NCBI GenBank assembly: GCA_963697065.1 | Contig: CAVOMQ010000001.1 | Location: 386,518-450,517 of the forward strand | Source: an uncultured Gemmatimonadales bacterium | Lineage (GTDB): Bacteria; Gemmatimonadota; Gemmatimonadetes; Gemmatimonadales; GWC2-71-9 | Reading direction: 5' to 3' | DNA: 64,000 nt | Part shown: positions 1,513 to 46,374 of the stretch, in pieces | Position numbering within the stretch: position 1 is the stretch's first letter | Layout: each line of letters begins with the position of its first letter | The notes under the pieces: generated by a model | The model's database searches: none | Told to the model about the DNA's origin: nothing | The model's input: the letters and a program-made list of their open reading frames with translations, nothing else | Program-made: the position numbers and the translations under genes

Positions 1513-2760
1513 TCAGTCGACCGGAGCGTCGCGAAGCAGATCGATGGTGTGATCGACGTCGCGCTGCAGCACGTAGACGTGGGTGCTGAGGCGGAGGTAT
1601 TCGTAGCCGAACTCGGCGACTCTGCGGGTCCGGATCCGGAAGCGGCCGAGGTAACCCTGCAGATGTTCGGCGGTGGTTCCGTCCATCGTGAACGCCACCA
1701 TCGCCGAGCGGAGCGCCGCGTTGCGCGGCGAGACGAGACGCACCCGCGGCAGCTTCGCCAGGCCCTCGAAGAGCCGGGTGGCAAGACCGCGGTCGCGCTG
1801 CTCGATGACATCCTGCCCGATGGCGCGCTGAAACGCGACGGCCGCACGCAGCCCCTGGACCAGGGATTCGTTGCTGGTGCCGACGTGCTCGAAGCGTTCG
1901 ATGTTCTCCGCGGCCCAGTCACCGGAGGCGATCAGCGGCCAGGTGGTGGCGATGCGGTCGGGGTGCACCACGAGCAGACCGGTTCCCTTCGGCGCGAGCA
2001 GCCACTTGTGCGTCGACGTCGCGTAGAAATCAGCATCGAGCGCCTGCAGATCGACGTGCAGCATGCCCGGCGGATGCGCTCCGTCGATCACGGTGATGAT
2101 GCCGCGTTGCCGCGCAAGCCCCACCAGCTTCGCCACCGGCTGGATCATCCCGGTGGTGAACAGGACGTGCGAGATCGACAGCACCCTTGTGCGGGTCGTG
2201 ATCTGCGCCTCCCACGCGGCAACGAGTTCATCATCGTCGACCGGGTCGAGCGGCGGTGCGAACGTGCGGTACACCACGCCACGCCGTTTGGCGAGCAACT
2301 CCCAGCAACAGCGCCCGCCGATATGCTCGTGCGTGGTGGAGAGCACTTCGTCGCCGGGCTGGAGCTCGATGCCGGCGGCGGCATTGTTCATGGCCTCGGT
2401 GGTATTGCGCAGTACCGCCACGCTCCCCGGCCAGGCGTCGAGGAACGACTCGATCTCGACCTTGAAGGCCGGCCAGTCGACCGCTTCCTGTCCGATGATC
2501 CGCTCGAAAGCCCGCAGGTGCTGGATGGTGGCATCGAGCACCGGCAACGGGCACGCGCCATACGTGCCGGTGTTGAGGTGCAGTCCGTCGATCACGAACT
2601 GATCCTTGATCCGTTCCCAGCCGGCTTCGTCGAGCGGCCCCGCGATCGGCGACACCGCGCCGGACCCTGGCGGGTGGGTGGGAATGCGCCGCGCCAGCGT
2701 CCCGATGCCGGGGAACGCGGCGGCCAGCGCCAGCAGGTCGCGGCGCGAGATGTCGTTCAA
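1513..2760 (-). CDS. Class V aminotransferase-fold PLP enzyme (isopenicillin-N epimerase / cysteine desulfurase-like) with a twin-arginine signal
   Basis: C-terminal 415 codons of ORF 1513..3303. TTG start at complement of 2758-2760 overlaps the upstream stop. N-terminus NDISRRDLLALAAAFPGIG is Tat-like. ATSTHKWLLAPKG is a PLP-lysine motif. Confidence 0.75.
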   Translation of the reverse strand: MNDISRRDLLALAAAFPGIGTLARRIPTHPPGSGAVSPIAGPLDEAGWERIKDQFVIDGLHLNTGTYGACPLPVLDATIQHLRAFERIIGQEAVDWPAFKVEIESFLDAWPGSVAVLRNTTEAMNNAAAGIELQPGDEVLSTTHEHIGGRCCWELLAKRRGVVYRTFAPPLDPVDDDELVAAWEAQITTRTRVLSISHVLFTTGMIQPVAKLVGLARQRGIITVIDGAHPPGMLHVDLQALDADFYATSTHKWLLAPKGTGLLVVHPDRIATTWPLIASGDWAAENIERFEHVGTSNESLVQGLRAAVAFQRAIGQDVIEQRDRGLATRLFEGLAKLPRVRLVSPRNAALRSAMVAFTMDGTTAEHLQGYLGRFRIRTRRVAEFGYEYLRLSTHVYVLQRDVDHTIDLLRDAPVD

Positions 2761-3212
2761 TGCTTGTAGAGCGCGCCGGCGAGGAGTGCGATCAGCGCCA
2801 GCGTGCCCGCAATCGAGCTGACGATGCGGAGCCGGACGCGGAGTGCATCGAAGAGTGGCGCCTGCGGCCCCAGCGGTTCGAGGCGGGACAGCTTCGCCGC
2901 GATCGGCAGTGACCCGAGCAGCGAGACGAGAGCGCCCACCGCCCCGGCGCCTTCCATGGTGCCGAGCCACGGCCCGACGTACCCGGACATGGCACCCGGT
3001 GCACTGAGCGCCATGATGATGCCCGAGAAGAGGACGATGACGGCCCCCGGCGCGATCAGGCCGCGGTAGATGGCGCCCTGCACTTCGACGGCCGCGCCCC
3101 ACAGTGAGCGGTCGAGGCGGCGCATGGCCAGTGACGCGACGAATCCGGCCAGACCGCCGCCGATCCACGCGACGAACCCGAGATAGTGGATGAAATGCCA
3201 GAAGCCGTTCAT
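2757..3212 (-). CDS. Small polytopic membrane protein (DUF2269-like), function unknown
   Basis: ORF 2757..3212, four hydrophobic segments (FIHYLGFVAWIGGGLAGFV, GAVIVLFSGIIMAL, ...). 4-nt overlaps with both neighbours. Confidence 0.6.
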   Translation of the reverse strand: MNGFWHFIHYLGFVAWIGGGLAGFVASLAMRRLDRSLWGAAVEVQGAIYRGLIAPGAVIVLFSGIIMALSAPGAMSGYVGPWLGTMEGAGAVGALVSLLGSLPIAAKLSRLEPLGPQAPLFDALRVRLRIVSSIAGTLALIALLAGALYKH

Positions 3213-3637
3213 GACGTGGTGACCTCGAAGAGTTGTTCATCGACCGGCATCCGGCCCGCGAAACCGGTGTCGACCTCGTGCCAGTATTCGACGTGGTCCT
3301 CACCGTAACGCCAGCACAGAAGGACTTCGCGCCCGGCGATCAGCGCGGGATAATCGACCAATCCGGCGTCGAATCCCTTGAACAGACAGCCGATCTGGTC
3401 GAGCTCGTCGAGGCACGACTCGATTTCGCCCGCCAGTTGGCCGGCTTCGAGACGCGCGGCGCGGGCGGCGTCGGTCTCGGCGTCGGGCGTCGCCGCGACC
3501 TGTTCGGCTTCGAACGCCGCGACGGCGCGGCGCCAGCGGGGATGCAGCTCCTGCAGATCGCCGACGATACGTCGCACCAGCGGCAGCGTGGCATCGGCCT
3601 GCTCGGGGGTGAAGTAGCGGCGGGGGGAATCGGTCAT
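3209..3637 (-). CDS. DUF2203-like protein, function unknown
   Basis: Internal ATG (complement of 3635-3637) of ORF 3209..3817: MTDSPRRYFTPEQADATLPLVRRIV...LLCWRYGEDHVEYWHEVDTGFAGR. ATGA overlap with the upstream patatin stop. Confidence 0.6.
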   Translation of the reverse strand: MTDSPRRYFTPEQADATLPLVRRIVGDLQELHPRWRRAVAAFEAEQVAATPDAETDAARAARLEAGQLAGEIESCLDELDQIGCLFKGFDAGLVDYPALIAGREVLLCWRYGEDHVEYWHEVDTGFAGRMPVDEQLFEVTTS

Positions 3638-34743: not shown

Positions 34744-36651
34744 CTACATCGTTTCCTTCAACTCGGCCGCCGCGCCGATGACGTGATCGACGTCACGGCT
34801 CAGGGCCCGCGCCTGTTGCGTGGCCTGGGTCAGGTTGTTCAGCACCGCGCCCACGCCACTCTGCCGCAACCGCATCAGGTCCAGCCGGACGTTCTGCATC
34901 GCCAGCAGGCAACTCTCGAAGCGCTCCGAGAACTGCACCCGCCGCGCGGTCAATTCGCGGCACGCGCGCAACTGCTGCTCCAGCAGCGTGATCTGGCGGT
35001 CGCGCTCTTCTCCCTCGGGACGCTGGCGCAATTCCGCCAGGCGCGCCTCGATACGGTCCGCATCCTCGATACCCAGCGACTCCATCGAATGCAGCGTCTG
35101 CGCCAGCTGCGAGGCGCGTTCGTAGAGCGCGTCGGTGGTCTGCGCCACGTCGGGCAGCAGCTCCTTGTCGGCCGGGCTCAACTGGTTCATCAGGCTGAGG
35201 ATCATCCCGCGATCGCGGTGGACCTGTTCCATCCGGTCGCGATAGCGCCCGAAGAGTTCCGCTGTCGGCGCTGCGATCTGCTTGACGCCCTTGGCGTTCT
35301 TTCCGCCTGGGCCGATCGCGTCGGGAGCCGGTGGCCGGTGAATCACGTCGCGCCACGAGTACCCCGCCTGCCACAGTTCCGAGTAACGCCGGAACATCGG
35401 AATCGCCATGAAGCCCGCGACGACCAGTGACCACGGGTTGTGCGGTCCGCCTGCGACCATCATGTTGACCGCGAACAGACCGCCGCTGAGCGCGGCCCAG
35501 CGCCCGAAGTCGCGCCGCAGCCGCACCACCATCTGCGGCTCGCCGGTATCGCGCAGCGGCGCCTCGTCCCGGTTGCGCCGCGCCAGGCGCTGGTCGCGCC
35601 GCAGGTCTCGGCGACTTGCGCGCGAGTCCGGGTTCGTGTTCCGCCGCGGCAGCGGCGGGCGACTCGGTGCGCCGGCGGGCGGCTGCCCCGGTCGTGTCCG
35701 GGCACGATCCGGCAGCGGACGCGGCCGTGTGGGATGGAGCGGCTCGCGGGTCTGCGCCCGCCAGCCAAGGCCTGTCGGCCGGTATCCCGAAACGTTCCTC
35801 GATTCCAGCGCCCGCCGCAGCGCATCGGCAGATGACCATCGATTGGCCGGATCCTTCTCCAGGCACCGTGCCACCGTCAACGACAGGTCTTCTGGGATGT
35901 CCGGAAATTTCTCGTGCAGGAGCGGCGCCGGCTCCGTGATGTGCTTCATCAGGATGCCGGCAACCGTCGGCGCGTTGAACGGCAGTTCCCCGGAGAGCAT
36001 CTGATACGCCACCACGCCCAGCGAATAGAGATCGCTGCGCCCGTCGATCTCGCGCTCACCGGCGGCCTGCTCGGGCGACATGTACGACGGCGTGCCGATC
36101 GCCATGCCGGCGCTCGTCAGCGTCGAACCGCTGGTCGACGAAATCGCCTTCGCGATGCCGAAGTCCGTGACGACGACCCGGCCCCGCGTCCCTTCCAGCA
36201 GGATGTTGTCGGGCTTGATGTCGCGGTGAATGACCGACACCGCATGGGCGGCCGACAGCGCGTCGGCCGTTTCGCGCATGATGCGCCGGGTCTCATCCGC
36301 CGACACGCGGCCCCGCCGCCTGATCCGGGCCGCGAGTGACTCGCCTTCGATCAGCCCCATCACGAAGTAGACGACGCCATTCCCTTCGCCGACGTCGTGG
36401 ATCGGAACGATATGGGGATGGGACAGGCGCGCCGCCGTCTGCGCCTCGCGGGTGAAGCGCTGTCGGATCTCCGACGAAAAAGCCAGTTCCGGTGGCAGCA
36501 CCTTCACCGCCACCCGCCGCTGCAGCCGCTCGTCCCGGGCCCGGTACACCACGCCCATGCCACCGCGGCCGATCTCGCCCTCGATAGTGTAGGCGTCGCC
36601 GAGCGCCTCCTTCAGGAGCGTGGGCAGGGAGCGCTGGCTCGGCTCGGTCAT
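34744..36651 (-). CDS. Ser/Thr protein kinase with a TM segment and a long coiled-coil C-terminal domain
   Basis: ATG at complement of 36649-36651. GRGGMGVVY...VAVK (subdomains I-II), HRDIKPDN, DFG and SPE motifs. Confidence 0.9.
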   Translation of the reverse strand: MTEPSQRSLPTLLKEALGDAYTIEGEIGRGGMGVVYRARDERLQRRVAVKVLPPELAFSSEIRQRFTREAQTAARLSHPHIVPIHDVGEGNGVVYFVMGLIEGESLAARIRRRGRVSADETRRIMRETADALSAAHAVSVIHRDIKPDNILLEGTRGRVVVTDFGIAKAISSTSGSTLTSAGMAIGTPSYMSPEQAAGEREIDGRSDLYSLGVVAYQMLSGELPFNAPTVAGILMKHITEPAPLLHEKFPDIPEDLSLTVARCLEKDPANRWSSADALRRALESRNVSGYRPTGLGWRAQTREPLHPTRPRPLPDRARTRPGQPPAGAPSRPPLPRRNTNPDSRASRRDLRRDQRLARRNRDEAPLRDTGEPQMVVRLRRDFGRWAALSGGLFAVNMMVAGGPHNPWSLVVAGFMAIPMFRRYSELWQAGYSWRDVIHRPPAPDAIGPGGKNAKGVKQIAAPTAELFGRYRDRMEQVHRDRGMILSLMNQLSPADKELLPDVAQTTDALYERASQLAQTLHSMESLGIEDADRIEARLAELRQRPEGEERDRQITLLEQQLRACRELTARRVQFSERFESCLLAMQNVRLDLMRLRQSGVGAVLNNLTQATQQARALSRDVDHVIGAAAELKETM

Positions 36652-36931
36652 TGCGATCCTGAGACGCGGAAGAGAGGCGTGGACTAAACCACGAATCTGC
36701 ACCGAGATGCGCCCGCGAGCAACGTGCCGCGAGCCCCTGCCGCCGCGACAGCCAATGCCGGTTCTGCGCTCTCGATCGTGCCCCTCTGGCGGGCCGCGTT
36801 CGTCTCCTCGGCCAGCCAGGCAGGCTTTTCGACCCGGCGTCTGGCATGGCGAATGCGCCATCTTTCGGCGGGTTCACAGGCCCCGCTCCATCCGGACGGG
36901 CCACCCGACCCAATGGAAGGAGTCAAGACTT

Positions 36932-38014
36932 GTGACTGACCGTATGACCATTCCGGTTCTCCCCCTGCGGGATGTCGTGCTGTTCCCCGGGGTGACCGCG
37001 CCGATCGGCGCGGGCCGGCCGATGACCATCAAGGCCATCGAAGCGGCCCTGGCCACCCCGGAAAAACTGGTGTTCGCCGTCGCGCAGCGTGAGAACGTCG
37101 AGTCGGTCAATCCTGACGGACTCTACGGCATAGGTACCATCGCCAAGATCGGGCAGCTGCAGCGCGGGTTGTCCGGCATGCAGCTGCTGCTGCACGGCGA
37201 GCGGCGCGCCATGACCCTGCACATTGCCGACGACCACGGGCATCTCACCGCGACCATTCGGCCGCTCGACGATCTCCCGCCGGTCGACGCCAACGACGCC
37301 GGCTTCGTGGCACTGCACCGCGAGCTGCGTGCCCGTTCCGCCGAGCTCGGCCAGAAATCCGGATTGCCGGAAGACGTCGTCCAGCAGGTGCTGAATGGCG
37401 TCGACGAACCGGGCCGGTTCGCTGATCTCGTCGCCGGGTATCTCGATCTCGAAACACCCCAACGGCAGGCGCTGCTCGAAACGCTCGCCGTCGACGACCG
37501 CCTCCGCCGCGTGCTGGTGCACGTGCAGCGGCAGATCGCCGTGCTCGACGCCCAGGAAGACATCAAGAACCAGGTGCAGGAAGAGCTGGGCGAGCGCCAG
37601 CGTGAGGTGTACCTCCGCGAGCAGCTCAAGACCATCCGGCGTGAACTCGGCGACGAGGACGAATCGAGCGACGTTGACGAACTGGAGCAGCGTCTGGCCA
37701 AACTCGAGCTTCCCGAAGAGGCCCGGAAGGAGATCGACCGCGAGCTCTCCCGCCTCCGGCGCACCAGCCGCGAGTCGATGGAAGCGCAGGTCATTCGCAC
37801 CTATCTGGAACACGTCGTGGAGCTTCCCTGGAACGAGCGCACGGCGGAGCGGCTCGATCTCCCCGAGGCGGCCAAGATTCTCGACGAGGATCACTACGCA
37901 CTGGGTGACGTGAAGGACCGCGTGCTGGAATTCCTGGCGGTGCGTGCCATGCGCGCCCGGCGGGACGAGGGCGCGGCGGCACCCGCCGATGCCGCCGTCA
38001 CAGGCCGCCGGTGA
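36932..38014 (+). CDS. lon: Lon protease, N-terminal (LON substrate-binding) segment; reading frame ends prematurely
   Basis: GTG at 36932, 9 nt after AAGGAG (ATG at 36944 is an alternative). [15 protein letters not shown], coiled-coil region, [27 protein letters not shown]. Stops at 38012-38014 just before the expected Walker A. Confidence 0.85.
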
Positions 38015-39452
38015 AGTCCCGTCCGAAGGGGGGACGCCGGGTTCGGCTGAGGTGCCGCCGCCCGCCGTCGACGACGCGGCCGAGGCCCGCAAGCACTCGC
38101 CGATTCTGCTCTTCGTCGGTCCGCCGGGCGTCGGCAAGACGTCGGTCGCCAAGAGCATCGCCCGCGCCATGGGACGCAAGTATGTCCGCATCTCGCTCGG
38201 CGGCGCGCGGGACGAAGCCGACATCCGCGGTCATCGCCGCACCTACGTCGGCGCGATGCCGGGACGCATCATCCAGGGGATGAAGCAGGCCGGCACCAAG
38301 AACCCGGTCTTCCTGCTCGACGAGGTCGACAAGCTCGGTGTCTCGTTCCAGGGAGATCCGGCGGCCGCGTTGCTCGAGGTGCTCGATCCGGCGCAGAACG
38401 ATTCGTTCACCGATCACTATCTCGGGATCCCGTTCGATCTCAGCGAAGTGCTGTTCATCGCCACGGCCAACCTGGCGCAGAACATCCCCGGACCGCTGCT
38501 CGACCGGATGGAGATGGTGGAATTCTCGGGTTACATCGAGGCCGAGAAGGTCGCCATCGCCGAACGGTACCTGGTGCCGCGCCAGGTCGAGGAAAACGGG
38601 TTGACGCCGGAGCGCATCAACTTCACCGGCCCCGCGCTGCTGGAACTGGTGCAGCGCTACACCCGCGAAGCGGGCGTGCGTCAACTGGAGCGCGAAATCG
38701 GCAAGGTGACGCGCAAGGTCGCGCGCCGGCTGGCCGACGGCAACGAAGGTCCGGTCGCGATCACCCCGGCGCTGATTCGCGAACTGCTCGGCCGGCCCAA
38801 GCTCCACCCGGAGGAAAAGGCCGGGGTCGACCAGGTCGGCGTGGCCACCGGCATGTACTACACGCCGATGGGCGGCGACATCATGTTCGTCGAGGCCTCC
38901 ACCATGCGTGGCAAGGGCGAACTGGTCCTCACCGGCCAGCTCGGCGACGTCATGAAGGAGTCGGCGCGCGCGGCGTGGTCGTACGCCCGCTCGCACGCGG
39001 CGGCGCTGCACATCAAGGACGAGATGTTCGACCGCGACGTCCACATCCACGTCCCCGCCGGCGCCATCCCGAAGGATGGCCCGAGCGCCGGTGTCACCAT
39101 GGCGACGGCGCTCGTGTCGGCGCTCTCGGGCCGCGACGTCCGCCACGACATCGCCATGACGGGCGAGGTGACGCTGCGGGGGCGGGTGCTGCCGATCGGC
39201 GGCGTCAAAGAGAAGCTGCTCGGGGCGCTCCGCGCCGGCATCTCGCGGGTGATCATCCCGAAGCAGAACGAGCCCGATCTCGACGACCTTCCCGAAGAGG
39301 CGCGGAAGCGGCTCGATGTGCACCTGGTGGAAGAACTCGGCGAAGTGCTGGCGCTGGCGCTGCGTGACGCGCGCTACAGCGAAGGCAAACTGCTCTTCGG
39401 CGACGAGAATCCGCACGACGTGGTCCCGCTGACCGTGCCGTACCGCCACTAG
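37944..39452 (+). CDS. lon: Lon protease, AAA+ ATPase and S16 protease segment (in a different frame from the N-terminal segment)
   Basis: Walker [10 protein letters not shown], Walker [10 protein letters not shown], catalytic [17 protein letters not shown] and [10 protein letters not shown]. The frame is open from 37944 and overlaps the end of the previous segment. Confidence 0.85.
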
Positions 39453-43123: not shown

Positions 43124-44089
43124 CTACTGGTACTGGATGTAGAGCGGGACCGGCCGGAGCGCCAGGATCTCGGCGAACGACAGCATCGGCCTGTCGTTCT
43201 TGTAGAAGAGCTTGATGCCGGCGTATTGCACCGGGTTGTGGGTCACCACCACGTCGTAGATATGCTTCTTCAGGGCGGGCGCCCCGAACCCGTCCATGTC
43301 GATGACGACCTGGACGCGCGGGTCGGTGATGATGTCCCGGTAGCCGGTGAGCATCCGGTCGGTGAAGCGGTGCACCACCAGCACCTTCGGCGGCAGATGG
43401 TACTCGGTTACCAGCTGCGCCAGATAGCGGATGGCGAAATTCACCTGGCTGGCATTGAGCGTACCGATGTAGCGTCCGGGAACCCTGCCGCCCGTCATCG
43501 CGAATTCCGGATCGAGTGCGAGATGCACCCATGGCTTCCGCAGCCATGGCACCAGATGTGACAGTTCGTCCGGCACGGTGCTCTGCCCCACCTGCACGTC
43601 GAGAAACAGCAGCCATCCGCGTTCCTGGGCCCAATCGGCTACTTCGTCGATCAGCGAATCGGAGTCCCGGAGCCGGTATTTCGAATCTCGCCCCGGCTGA
43701 CCTTGCGCAACGGTGGCGATGAGATGCAGCGCCGGGCGGACCGGGCGCGTGCTGTCGGCAGCCGCCCATTCCGCCGCCGTGGTCTCCAGCTTGGCCATCA
43801 TCGCCCCGGGCGGGAGGGCGCCGAGGATGCCCATGTGTGTCGAGAGCGGATTGCCGTAGAACGCCACAATGCGTGTGGCCGGCAGCAGCGCCCCGGGCAG
43901 CACCGCAAGCGGCCGGACGGCGTATGGCGGCAGCGCTGTATCGGCGAACACCGGAGCGGCCACCGGGATCGCCAGATCGCCCATCCCGAACTGGCCGGCG
44001 GGATTCTGCTCCGCCAGCGCAGGAAGCGGCGCGGTCAGCGCCCCGCAGCACAACAGCAGCACACCGTGACGTCGCATCGAACGAAGCAT
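43124..44089 (-). CDS. Exported hypothetical protein
   Basis: ATG at complement of 44087-44089 gives signal MLRSMRRHGVLLLCCGALTAPLPALA. The upstream 103 codons of track ORF 43124..44398 are antisense to the SelW-like gene and are rejected. Confidence 0.6.
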   Translation of the reverse strand: MLRSMRRHGVLLLCCGALTAPLPALAEQNPAGQFGMGDLAIPVAAPVFADTALPPYAVRPLAVLPGALLPATRIVAFYGNPLSTHMGILGALPPGAMMAKLETTAAEWAAADSTRPVRPALHLIATVAQGQPGRDSKYRLRDSDSLIDEVADWAQERGWLLFLDVQVGQSTVPDELSHLVPWLRKPWVHLALDPEFAMTGGRVPGRYIGTLNASQVNFAIRYLAQLVTEYHLPPKVLVVHRFTDRMLTGYRDIITDPRVQVVIDMDGFGAPALKKHIYDVVVTHNPVQYAGIKLFYKNDRPMLSFAEILALRPVPLYIQYQ

Positions 44090-44170
44090 AATCACGGCGC
44101 GATCCCGTTGGTCGCTCCGCACGACTCCGTTATGATTGGTGGCGCTGCCAACATCGGGAACTCCGGCTTG

Positions 44171-44407
44171 ATGCGGATCGACATCACGTTCTGCGTTGTC
44201 TGAAACTACGAGCACCGGGCGACCAGTCTGGCCGCCGAGCTCGGTCGCGAATTCCCCGACGCGGATGTCCGGTTGCACCGGAGCCACGGCGGGGTCTTTG
44301 AGGTATCGGTGGATCGAACCGTGATCTTCTCCAAACACGCGCTCGGCCGGCATGCCCAGCCCGGCGAGGTGCTCCGCCTGCTCCGCCAACACTTGCACGC
44401 CTCGTGA
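44171..44407 (+). CDS. SelW/SelT/SelH (Rdx) family redox protein with an in-frame TGA at the CxxU position (predicted selenoprotein)
   Basis: Own translation: MRIDITFCVV-TGA-NYEHRATSLAAELGREFPDADVRLHRSHGGVFEVSVDRTVIFSKHALGRHAQPGEVLRLLRQHLHAS-stop. TGA at 44201-44203 lies exactly where Rdx proteins carry the second redox residue (CxxC/CxxU). The GGxFEVxVD...IFSK signature continues in frame after it. The terminal TGA overlaps the pfkA GTG (GTGA). Confidence 0.75.
44209..44243 (+). other. Candidate bacterial SECIS hairpin 6 nt downstream of the in-frame UGA
   Basis: cgagc (44209-13) pairs with gctcg (44239-43). Upper stem 44216-18/44235-37 and 44220-21/44233-34 with bulged G44219. 11-nt apical loop. 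Folded by eye only. Confidence 0.3.
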
Positions 44408-45483
44408 GAATCGCTATCTCCACCGGCGGCGGCGACGCGCCGGGGCTCAACGCCGTCATCCGTGCCGCCGTCCTCTCCGCGCACGACCGCGGCTGGGAGT
44501 GCATCGGGATCCGCCGCGGCTACCTCGGCATCTACGACGGCACCGGCCTGGTGCGCCTCGGCGTGGAACAGGTGCGCGGTATCACGCACCTCGGCGGAAC
44601 GATCCTCGGCGCCGCCACCCACGGCAATCCCCTCCGCTGGCCGCAATTGCAGCCCGACGGCCGCGTCGTCGAAGTCGACCGGTGCGACGAACTGCTCGCG
44701 GCGTTCCGGCGCGAACGGATCGACGCGCTGGTGACCATCGGAGGGGACGGCTCGCTCAGCATCGCCGCCGAATTGTGGCGCCGCGGCCTGCCCGTCGTCG
44801 GCGTACCGAAGACGATCGACAACGACGTCACCGGTACCGAAACCACGATGGGTTTCGACACCGCCGTCTCGACCGCCACCGAAGCGCTCGACAAGCTCCA
44901 CACCACCGCCGAGGCGCATGACCGCGTCATGGTGGTCGAGGTGATGGGGCGCAATACCGGCTGGATCGCGCTGCACACCGGCATCTCGGGAACGGCGGAC
45001 GTCATCCTCATTCCGGAAATTCCGTTCGAGATCGACCTGGTCTGCGACAAGATCCGCCAGCTGGAACAGACCGGACGGCATTACGGCATCGTGGTCGCCG
45101 CCGAGGGCGCCGTGCCGGTCGGCGGCCAGGCGATCGTGCGCGAACACCGCGCCGCGGGCGCCACCGAGCGACTGGGCGGGATCGGCGAGATGGTGGCGCG
45201 CGGAATCACCGAACGCACCGGCAAGGAAACACGATCACTGGTACTGGGACACCTGCAGCGGGGTGGGTCTCCCACCACATTCGACCGATTGCTGGCGCTC
45301 CGTCTCGGCTCGGCGGCGGTTCGCGCCGTCGCGGAAGGAGATTTCGGCGTGATGGTCGCCTACAACCCGCCCCACATCACCCGGGTTCCGCTCGCCGACG
45401 CGGTGGGTCGCCTCAAGATCGTTCCGCTCGATTCGGGTGTGATTCTCACCGCGAGACACCTCGGCATCAGCTTCGGCGCCTGA
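44404..45483 (+). CDS. pfkA: ATP-dependent 6-phosphofructokinase
   Basis: GGGDAPGLNA, IGGDGS, PKTIDND and MGR motifs. Confidence 0.9.
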   Translation: MRIAISTGGGDAPGLNAVIRAAVLSAHDRGWECIGIRRGYLGIYDGTGLVRLGVEQVRGITHLGGTILGAATHGNPLRWPQLQPDGRVVEVDRCDELLAAFRRERIDALVTIGGDGSLSIAAELWRRGLPVVGVPKTIDNDVTGTETTMGFDTAVSTATEALDKLHTTAEAHDRVMVVEVMGRNTGWIALHTGISGTADVILIPEIPFEIDLVCDKIRQLEQTGRHYGIVVAAEGAVPVGGQAIVREHRAAGATERLGGIGEMVARGITERTGKETRSLVLGHLQRGGSPTTFDRLLALRLGSAAVRAVAEGDFGVMVAYNPPHITRVPLADAVGRLKIVPLDSGVILTARHLGISFGA

Positions 45484-45498
45484 GCAACGCGAGGCGGG

Positions 45499-45852
45499 TC
45501 AGCGCGTGATCCAGCCGCTCTGCTGACCTTCCAGACCCGGAAACGCTCCCACCGGCTGCCACATGGCCACCGATTCGATCCGCTCGGCGAGCTGCGCGTC
45601 CTTTTCGGTGATGCCACCCGCTGAGTGCGTCTGCAGGCGCACGACCACCCGACTCCAATGCACTTCCAGGTCGGGATGATGATTTGCGGCCTCGGCCACG
45701 AACGCGATGGCGTTGACGAGCAGTATCGTCGAACGCCAACCATCGGTGGAAAATTCCCGCACCAGCCAGCCGCCTTCTTCGCGCCAGTTGGTGAGATGCT
45801 TCAGCCGCCCCCGAAGGGCGTCGCCCTGCAACAACGGTTCACTTGTCGGCAT
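45499..45852 (-). CDS. phhB: Pterin-4-alpha-carbinolamine dehydratase
   Basis: Family signature ...FVAEAANHHPDLEVHWSRVVVRLQTH; size 117 aa. Confidence 0.85.
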   Translation of the reverse strand: MPTSEPLLQGDALRGRLKHLTNWREEGGWLVREFSTDGWRSTILLVNAIAFVAEAANHHPDLEVHWSRVVVRLQTHSAGGITEKDAQLAERIESVAMWQPVGAFPGLEGQQSGWITR

Positions 45853-45879
45853 CGCCGCATCACCTCGTAGTCCGTCGCG

Positions 45880-46374
45880 TCATGAGCTCGTCGCTTCGGC
45901 GTACGTCGCCGACTGGCCCGCCGATTCCTCCACCTCCACGGCAACGTAACCGAGGTGTGCCCCTTCGGCGCGAAGATCGCGACTGACCTGACGCACCAGC
46001 CACTCCGCCAGCAATTCTGCGGTCGTGTTGGTAATGGGAAGCATCACGCAATCGCGCGCCGGGAACCGGTAAGCCGCCTGTCCGAAGTAGTCCACCTCGA
46101 CGGAGCCATCCGCTTCGTGGATCCGCAGCTTCGGATTCTCGGCCGGCAACAATACCCGGTGGTCCATCATCTCGACGTACTTCCGCAGGACCCGCTTCAG
46201 CACCGCAAAGTCCACCACGAACGAACATTCGGCGTCGATCGGCCCCTCGACCGCAATGCCGAGCCGGTAATTGTGCCCGTGAAGGGACTCGCAGGTGTGG
46301 CCCCGAAAAGTGAGAAAATGAGCGGCCGCGAACGAGAGATAGTCCTTGCTCACCGCGACGCGATAGGTGCCCAC
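45880..46374 (-). CDS. 6-pyruvoyl-tetrahydropterin / 6-carboxytetrahydropterin synthase family protein
   Basis: FAAAHFL...CESLHGHNY (Cys-x3-His-Gly-His zinc/catalytic motif) and DFAVLK. Confidence 0.85.
   Translation of the reverse strand: MGTYRVAVSKDYLSFAAAHFLTFRGHTCESLHGHNYRLGIAVEGPIDAECSFVVDFAVLKRVLRKYVEMMDHRVLLPAENPKLRIHEADGSVEVDYFGQAAYRFPARDCVMLPITNTTAELLAEWLVRQVSRDLRAEGAHLGYVAVEVEESAGQSATYAEATSS

Follow-up and report, generated by a model that had tools for sequence, protein, structure and literature searches.

A probable SelW-like selenoprotein gene with a SECIS-like hairpin, overlapping a phosphofructokinase gene in a Gemmatimonadales bacterium

Within the window, the whole 64,000-nucleotide (64-kb) stretch of DNA that was analysed, positions 44171-44407 are very probably a real gene for a SelW-like selenoprotein, in which a hairpin behind an in-frame UGA would serve as SECIS element and which would form one unit with the 6-phosphofructokinase gene (pfk) that follows it (Table 1). 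The gene is a further member of the established bacterial family of SelW-like selenoproteins, and the operon with phosphofructokinase, which is unreported as far as our searches go, is its one mildly new element.

Table 1 Features of the selenoprotein-pfk locus, in window positions, and nucleotide diversity by region
Feature	Position	Strand	Details
Divergent upstream gene	43124..44089	-	321-aa hypothetical protein with a signal-peptide-like N-terminus; from the ORF list
Divergent intergenic region, 81 nt	44090..44170	.	by position only, the place where the promoter of the two-gene unit has to lie
SelW-like (Rdx family) selenoprotein CDS	44171..44407	+	77 residues including Sec11; stop TGA 44405-44407
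Redox motif Cys8-Val9-Val10-Sec11 (CxxU)	44192..44203	+	end of strand beta1; aligns with CxxC of 2fa8 and 3dex and with CVGC of P0001
In-frame UGA, presumably read as selenocysteine	44201..44203	+	TGA in 81/81 sequences (best 80 of 441 loci plus window)
Full hairpin of the earlier note	44209..44243	+	in the minimum-free-energy fold; lower stem 44209-13/44239-43 particular to the window
Conserved SECIS-like upper stem-loop	44218..44236	+	5' arm 44218-44225, loop G-U-C 44226-44228, 3' arm 44229-44236
6-phosphofructokinase gene (pfk)	44404..45483	+	359 aa; PF00365 E 6e-98; NF002872 355.9 bits, cut-off 253
Nucleotide diversity, codon positions 1/2/3	5' leader		0.70/0.70/0.71 (best 80 of 441 loci plus window)
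Nucleotide diversity, codon positions 1/2/3	ten codons before TGA		0.23/0.18/0.38 (best 80 of 441 loci plus window)
Nucleotide diversity, codon positions 1/2/3	codons +11 to +60		0.28/0.18/0.53 (best 80 of 441 loci plus window)

When the plus strand is read from the ATG at 44171, MRIDITFCVV is followed by the TGA at 44201-44203 and then, in the same frame, by NYEHRATSLAAELGREFPDADVRLHRSHGGVFEVSVDRTVIFSKHALGRHAQPGEVLRLLRQHLHAS, so that 67 sense codons lie between this TGA and the terminal TGA at 44405-44407. The mechanical ORF list contains no plus-strand ORF across 44171-44407; the long ORFs there are antisense, the plus-strand ORF 43703..44203 stops at the TGA and the first in-frame start past it is a TTG at 44273, which gives an ORF of only 44 amino acids (44273..44407). 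This confirms the earlier note, which had described a plus-strand gene that is hidden from the ORF track and spanned by antisense ORFs only. The note had also taken the antisense ORF 43124..44398 for a spurious 5' extension, and this view is upheld: the 424-aa form, which reaches 44398, extends spuriously across the selenoprotein gene, the best reading being a 321-residue gene with its start at 44089, and the only orthologue of the 321-aa protein among the best 80 of 441 loci (in L011) aligns from residue 11, ends short of the selenoprotein start and fits the shorter form. The 321-aa protein itself has no Pfam or NCBIfam match. A promoter and terminator scan of 43900-45700 returned nothing, with no sigma-70 consensus in 44090..44170, and the 60 nt 5' of the selenoprotein start are unconstrained, with a diversity of ~0.70 at all three positions in the best 80 of 441 loci plus the window.

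Profile searches were done with a query of 78 residues in which U was replaced by C; the gene encodes 77. Pfam PF10262 (Rdx) was matched over profile positions 1-74 of 74 with an E-value of 3.3e-19 and 69.3 bits (threshold 22.6), and NCBIfam TIGR02174 (CXXU_selWTH) with 51 bits (cut-off 34.2). The best-scoring NCBIfam model was NF041051 (SelTWH_Campy), which was matched over positions 1-69 of 70 with 80.6 bits, but since the curated cut-off is 88 the window protein is not filed under this equivalog. Sequence matches in the PDB were the SelW-related entries 2fa8, 3dex, 2oka, 2obk, 2p0g and 2ojl as well as human MIEN1, and the CxxC of these homologues lies in the same column as the CVVU of the window protein. 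A Cys-form orthologue, P0001, is 63% identical to the window protein and has CVGC as its motif; the TGA thus takes the place of the second redox Cys of the homologues, just as the earlier note had placed it. The thioredoxin-like fold was judged by proxy, on the AlphaFold model of the 63%-identical P0001. The model (pLDDT 72.5) has the expected order strand-helix-strand-strand-strand-helix, with a strand at 18-24, then a helix at 30-43 and the redox motif between them, and it superposes on bacterial SelW-related structures with TM-scores of 0.73-0.86 and rmsd values of 1.2-1.9 Å, next on mouse SelW and then on thioredoxins. As judged from sequence, the window protein is a member of the Rdx/SelW-like family and a presumed thiol/selenol redox protein, and the SelW/Rdx membership that had been proposed from length and signature is borne out by the full-length PF10262 match, a TIGR02174 score above the cut-off and the CxxC of the PDB entries in register.

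Genomes were scanned with each species represented once, and 441 relatives were confirmed; the 80 best by tblastn were retained, and large contigs such as CP070666.1, CAVWRM010000001.1 and QHUK01000010.1 are among those with the orthologue. Nearly all of the 80 loci are labelled Gemmatimonadales, Gemmatimonadota, Gemmatimonadetes or Gemmatimonas, and one short contig is labelled Methylomirabilota. Together with the window, the best 80 of 441 have TGA and never TAA or TAG as codon at the Sec column (81/81), and in all 81 it stands in the pattern C-x-x-TGA-N-Y. The terminal stops of the same 81 genes (best 80 of 441 plus the window) are TGA in 66 and TAG in 15 cases, and a start codon lies exactly 10 codons before the Sec column, ATG in 71, GTG in nine and TTG in one of them. 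Judged by nucleotide diversity at the three codon positions (Table 1), the constraint is of the coding type before as well as after the TGA and follows a single frame, which agrees with the statement of the earlier note that the family signature goes on in frame past it. TGA is the commonest ordinary stop among the ORFs of the window (33/53), so that the codon has not been reassigned throughout the genome and the recoding would be local. At the Cys-form orthologue locus L082 the Sec column carries TGC, so that relatives have either TGA (81/81, best 80 of 441 plus the window) or, in L082, a Cys codon there.

The protein search yielded 46 relatives, nearly all of which are 55-64 residues long and begin past the Sec column, at annotated internal starts that vary by locus (L, V or M, in different columns). 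Such N-terminally truncated database entries of 55-64 aa bear out the prediction that standard gene callers miss the gene. Among the 46 relatives, P0001 is a full-length Cys form (CVGC) and P0002 has Trp at the Sec column. P0002 is encoded on a metagenome contig (L086 757-1106, JGI Ga0070694_100200319) with the same TGA, the same hairpin and a downstream pfk, and since this gene call also continues past the real stop codon, a TGA, a wrong code table (TGA = Trp) had been applied to the contig.

The hairpin 44209-44243, which according to the earlier note lies where a bacterial SECIS element is expected, was indeed recovered in the minimum-free-energy fold, but the 66-nt stretch of this DNA (68% GC) is no more stable than its shuffles (z = -0.36; 69 of 200 shuffles fold as well), and therefore the hairpin counts as evidence only via comparison. 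To this end, alignment A2 was used, which comprises 81 sequences (best 80 of 441 plus the window) and in which column 1 is the T of the TGA. Columns 18-25 pair with columns 29-36 in 96.3% of cells, both sides have changed in four of the eight pairs of this upper helix and the covariation score amounted to 0.212, compared to 0.128 in shuffles, 0 of 500 of which reached 0.212 (all in A2, best 80 of 441 plus the window). Slid controls, in which the partner was moved by one to three columns, gave a covariation of at most 0.088. The pair 18-36 is G-C in 52, A-U in 19 and C-G in four sequences of A2 (best 80 of 441 plus the window), and because it joins the third bases of an Arg and an Ala codon, where these changes are synonymous, protein coding cannot explain the covariation. 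Mapping of this pair on a neighbour-joining tree, which was built from the coding sequence around the hairpin and is rough, gave at least ~16 state changes, a count that is approximate since the tree rests on only 165 nt. In the same set (best 80 of 441 plus the window) the G of the loop (column 26) is invariant and the following U is present in 79/81; the loop codon is GGT in 53 and AGT in 26 sequences, both of which are rare in the codon usage of the window (GGT 14.5% of Gly codons, AGT 4.9% of Ser codons), and the third-position diversity of codons +1 to +10 is 0.24 as compared to 0.53 further on.

In the window, the stem of the conserved hairpin 44218-44236 begins 14 nt past the UGA, and 22 nt lie between the UGA and the loop. 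The stem includes an A.C mismatch at 44222/44232, a position that is unpaired in 17/81 sequences (best 80 of 441 plus the window). For the lower helix (44209-13/44239-43) the share of paired cells is only 59% (best 80 of 441 plus the window). Thus, of the hairpin proposed earlier only the upper 19 nt are conserved and covarying, and the lower part is not. In the Cys-form locus L082 the loop codon is GCG, by which the G-U is lost, and the pair 19-35, which is otherwise invariant, is broken; this single example would look like relaxation of a SECIS element. Rfam gave no relevant match, neither for the whole window at the gathering threshold nor for 43900-44700 at the E-value threshold, and a pattern scan of the 64-kb window revealed no second TGA-plus-hairpin site in a coding-like context. 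In its arrangement, the hairpin 44218-44236 matches a bacterial SECIS element and is a candidate SelB-binding site. From the family, the column, the conservation of the codon and the covarying SECIS-like element we infer that selenocysteine is inserted at the UGA 44201-44203.

The UGA stands where the catalytic Cys or Sec of the family is found, a family for which selenoproteins are documented in bacteria (PMC1088965, PMC1794560), and the hairpin has the hallmarks of a SECIS element, i.e. the right distance and a small apical loop with an invariant G followed by U (PMC8659212). These features leave a slim chance that the UGA is instead recoded to Cys or Trp by near-cognate read-through, with the hairpin stimulating it without SelB in a lineage without a Sec pathway. 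This explanation draws on the Sec machinery, none of which was found in the 64-kb window: ARAGORN detected 0 tRNA genes in the window and no tRNA-Sec in the window or in 60 flanking loci, and a Pfam survey of ~50 ORFs revealed no selA, selB or selD in the window. It also draws on the one JGI gene call with Trp at the codon (P0002), but this Trp stems from the wrong code table, since the true terminal TGA was read through as well. If the TGA were a true stop, the locus would encode a 10-residue peptide and, from an internal start, an N-terminally truncated Rdx fragment, as is suggested by the annotation of the orthologues (55-64 aa, starting past the TGA) and by TGA being the stop codon that this genome normally uses. 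We regard this as very improbable, since the 44 aa that would start at TTG 44273 lack strand beta1, helix alpha1 and redox motif, the annotated internal starts differ between loci (L, V or M), the 10 codons that precede the TGA are conserved in the manner of coding sequence and begin with a conserved start codon and the occurrence of TGA, never TAA or TAG, in 81/81 sequences (best 80 of 441 plus the window) would be left unexplained. A pseudogene or a sequencing error, in which TGC or TGT was mutated to or misread as TGA, can practically be dismissed, although TGA is one base away from both and the Cys-form orthologue P0001 exists, because the same TGA is found in 80 independently assembled genomes (best 80 of 441) and in the metagenome contig L086 and selection is purifying before and after the TGA, with a covarying hairpin in addition.

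With selenocysteine as the preferred reading of the UGA, the selenoprotein gene is joined to pfk as follows. The selenoprotein stop and the GTG start of pfk at 44404 form a 4-nt overlap with the sequence GTGA (44404-44407), and the overlap reported earlier is indeed present. pfk lies directly downstream and on the same strand in 67/80 loci (best 80 of 441), and it is also found downstream in the Cys-form locus L082 and on the metagenome contig L086; the upstream and far-downstream neighbours vary among the best 80 of 441 loci, pfk is kept. Since the linkage recurs across loci, it is a conserved two-gene module of the clade and not an oddity of the window, so the pairing with a glycolytic kinase, which the earlier note had regarded as unusual, is not peculiar to this stretch (67/80, best 80 of 441). 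A 4-nt NTGA overlap is present in 24/81 sequences, i.e. in 23 loci and the window, and pfk, where it is present (68 sequences), has its start between a 10-nt overlap and a 7-nt gap in 51 cases (both for the best 80 of 441 plus the window). In this set (best 80 of 441 plus the window) the start of pfk is often TTG or GTG and mostly has no purine-rich motif upstream, but Shine-Dalgarno-like motifs are missing upstream of the selenoprotein gene too, and therefore their absence before pfk is no proof of coupling. The geometry suggests translational coupling from the selenoprotein gene to pfk, and the recurrent pairing may reflect a functional or biochemical link between the SelW-like protein and phosphofructokinase. 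The literature searched contained no report of SelW or Rdx with phosphofructokinase.

Thirteen Gemmatimonadales loci (L008, L010, L012, L015, L022, L026, L029, L031, L035, L039, L042, L067 and L078) have no pfk within 3 kb downstream. All of them carry the Sec-form gene and encode very similar proteins with the N-terminus MRVTIEYCVV or a close variant, and similar sequences elsewhere retain pfk, with a TTG start that overlaps the stop. In L040 (3001-4164, QHUC01000110.1; Gemmatimonadetes) the SelW-like ORF lacks a stop and continues in the frame of pfk, from about pfk residue 49 onwards; the two genes have been fused or a deletion has occurred. In L085 (5850-7016, JGI Ga0556625_000425), an unrelated contig, a SelW-like gene that is more distant has C-V-P-TGA-N-Y upstream of an annotated 69-aa fragment, and the next gene downstream, which it overlaps by 4 nt, encodes a GNAT acetyltransferase instead of phosphofructokinase; NucS and CHAD are neighbours on this contig. 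Downstream of pfk in the window, adjacent genes for a pterin-4a-carbinolamine dehydratase and a 6-pyruvoyl-tetrahydropterin synthase (45499-46374, minus strand) are oriented convergently to it, a pair that follows pfk in only two of the best 80 of 441 loci, L001 and L020.

The kinase of the window (44404-45483, plus strand) combines GGDGS with PKTIDND and scored 417.7 with TIGR02483 ('PFK_mixed'), just under the cut-off of 430.55. GGDGS is as in ATP-dependent enzymes and the Lys of PKTIDND as in pyrophosphate-dependent enzymes, so that, with the TIGR02483 score below the cut-off, the phosphoryl donor of the kinase is uncertain. Cys214 is the one well-conserved cysteine of the linked kinases (88%). 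A disulfide switch in these kinases was considered but would be mere speculation, since a conserved cysteine pair was looked for and only Cys214 is well conserved.

Elsewhere in the window, a Lon protease appears to be divided between two overlapping ORFs in different frames (36620-39452, plus strand): the first (36620-38014) comprises the substrate-binding domain and ends at the TGA at 38012-38014, the second (37944-39452) comprises the AAA+, lid and protease domains. This split may be real or may stem from a frameshift or an assembly error. The ORF 1513-3303 on the minus strand (596 aa) matches the class-V aminotransferase domain, a fold to which cysteine desulfurases and selenocysteine lyases belong; since the match begins only at residue 283, the true start is probably later. 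By itself, this ORF is not evidence of selenium metabolism.

We propose the following model for the expression of the two genes. When the ribosome arrives at the UGA 44201-44203, the stem-loop 44218-44236 with its apical G-U would act as bacterial SECIS element and would recruit SelB carrying Sec-tRNA(Sec), selenocysteine would be inserted and translation would run on to the stop at 44405-44407. Since the selenoprotein stop overlaps the GTG of pfk, both genes would be one transcription unit, and translation of pfk would probably be started by ribosomes that finish the selenoprotein. A more far-reaching version, in which phosphofructokinase synthesis depends on ribosomes that decode the UGA as selenocysteine 67 codons upstream and in which the SelW-like protein might act on the kinase, perhaps via Cys214, is speculative and in our view rather unlikely. 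It is suggested by most pfk genes of the clade, whose start lies a few nucleotides from the selenoprotein stop, is often a weak TTG or GTG and has no visible ribosome-binding motif, owing to which pfk synthesis may depend on Sec decoding; if true, the dose of a glycolytic kinase would respond to selenium supply or to Sec-decoding capacity. No report of such a selenium-gated translational coupling was found in the literature searched.

These findings correct the annotation of a gene that is absent from ORF lists and whose orthologues are public as truncated 'hypothetical' or 'selenoprotein W-related' entries of 55-64 aa or as translations under a wrong code table. With the pattern C-x-x-TGA-N-Y and the hairpin GCCGCC-GGUCU-GGCGGC, the complete gene can be retrieved from at least 80 genomes, which with few exceptions are labelled Gemmatimonadota or subgroups thereof. 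The gene would imply selenocysteine decoding in this common soil group; no mention of Gemmatimonadetes or Gemmatimonas with selenocysteine or selenoproteins was found in the literature searched. The recurrent tight operon with phosphofructokinase is a testable lead to the partner or pathway of bacterial SelW-like proteins.

CXXU SelW-like proteins are an established and abundant family of bacterial selenoproteins (PMC1088965, PMC1794560) that occurs in several bacterial phyla (PMC1794560); in the Sargasso Sea data, no other selenoprotein family was as abundant (48 genes; PMC1088965). The window gene is like these in the HMM family, the length of ~75-80 residues, the CxxU after strand beta1 and an in-frame UGA followed directly by a SECIS-like hairpin in the coding region with a G in a small apical loop; it differs from them in that it recurrently forms a tight pair with the gene of a phosphofructokinase. 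The Cys-type Rdx proteins Atu0228 (2fa8), SAV_2001 (3dex) and those of P. fluorescens (2obk) and V. cholerae (2p0g) were matched with E-values from 1.6e-6 to 0.03 and with the motif in register, but they are only ~25-30% identical and have CxxC instead of CxxU, so no recoding is needed. Mouse SelW (2npb) and MIEN1 (2ljk) share the predicted fold and the position of CxxU/CxxC, whereas the identity is only ~21%, there is no operon context and the eukaryotic SECIS element is located in the 3' UTR and has another structure.

Bacterial SECIS elements lie within the coding sequence just past the UGA and have a small apical loop with a G (PMC1088965). In fdhF of E. coli the functional part is likewise a stem-loop inside the coding sequence, i.e. 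an upper stem-loop 11 nt past the UGA with the essential loop bases G23/U24 as apical G-U (PMC8659212). In contrast, the upper stem in the window begins 14 nt past the UGA and not 11, so that the loop G-U is at +26/+27 instead of +23/+24, one codon further than in fdhF. The hairpin form that is most frequent in the relatives has the sequence GGUCUG in common with fdhF; the window has AGUCUG. The hairpin of the window has a loop of 3 nt, or of 5 nt with the G.U/A-U closing pair open, and, unlike fdhF with its U17, no bulged U.
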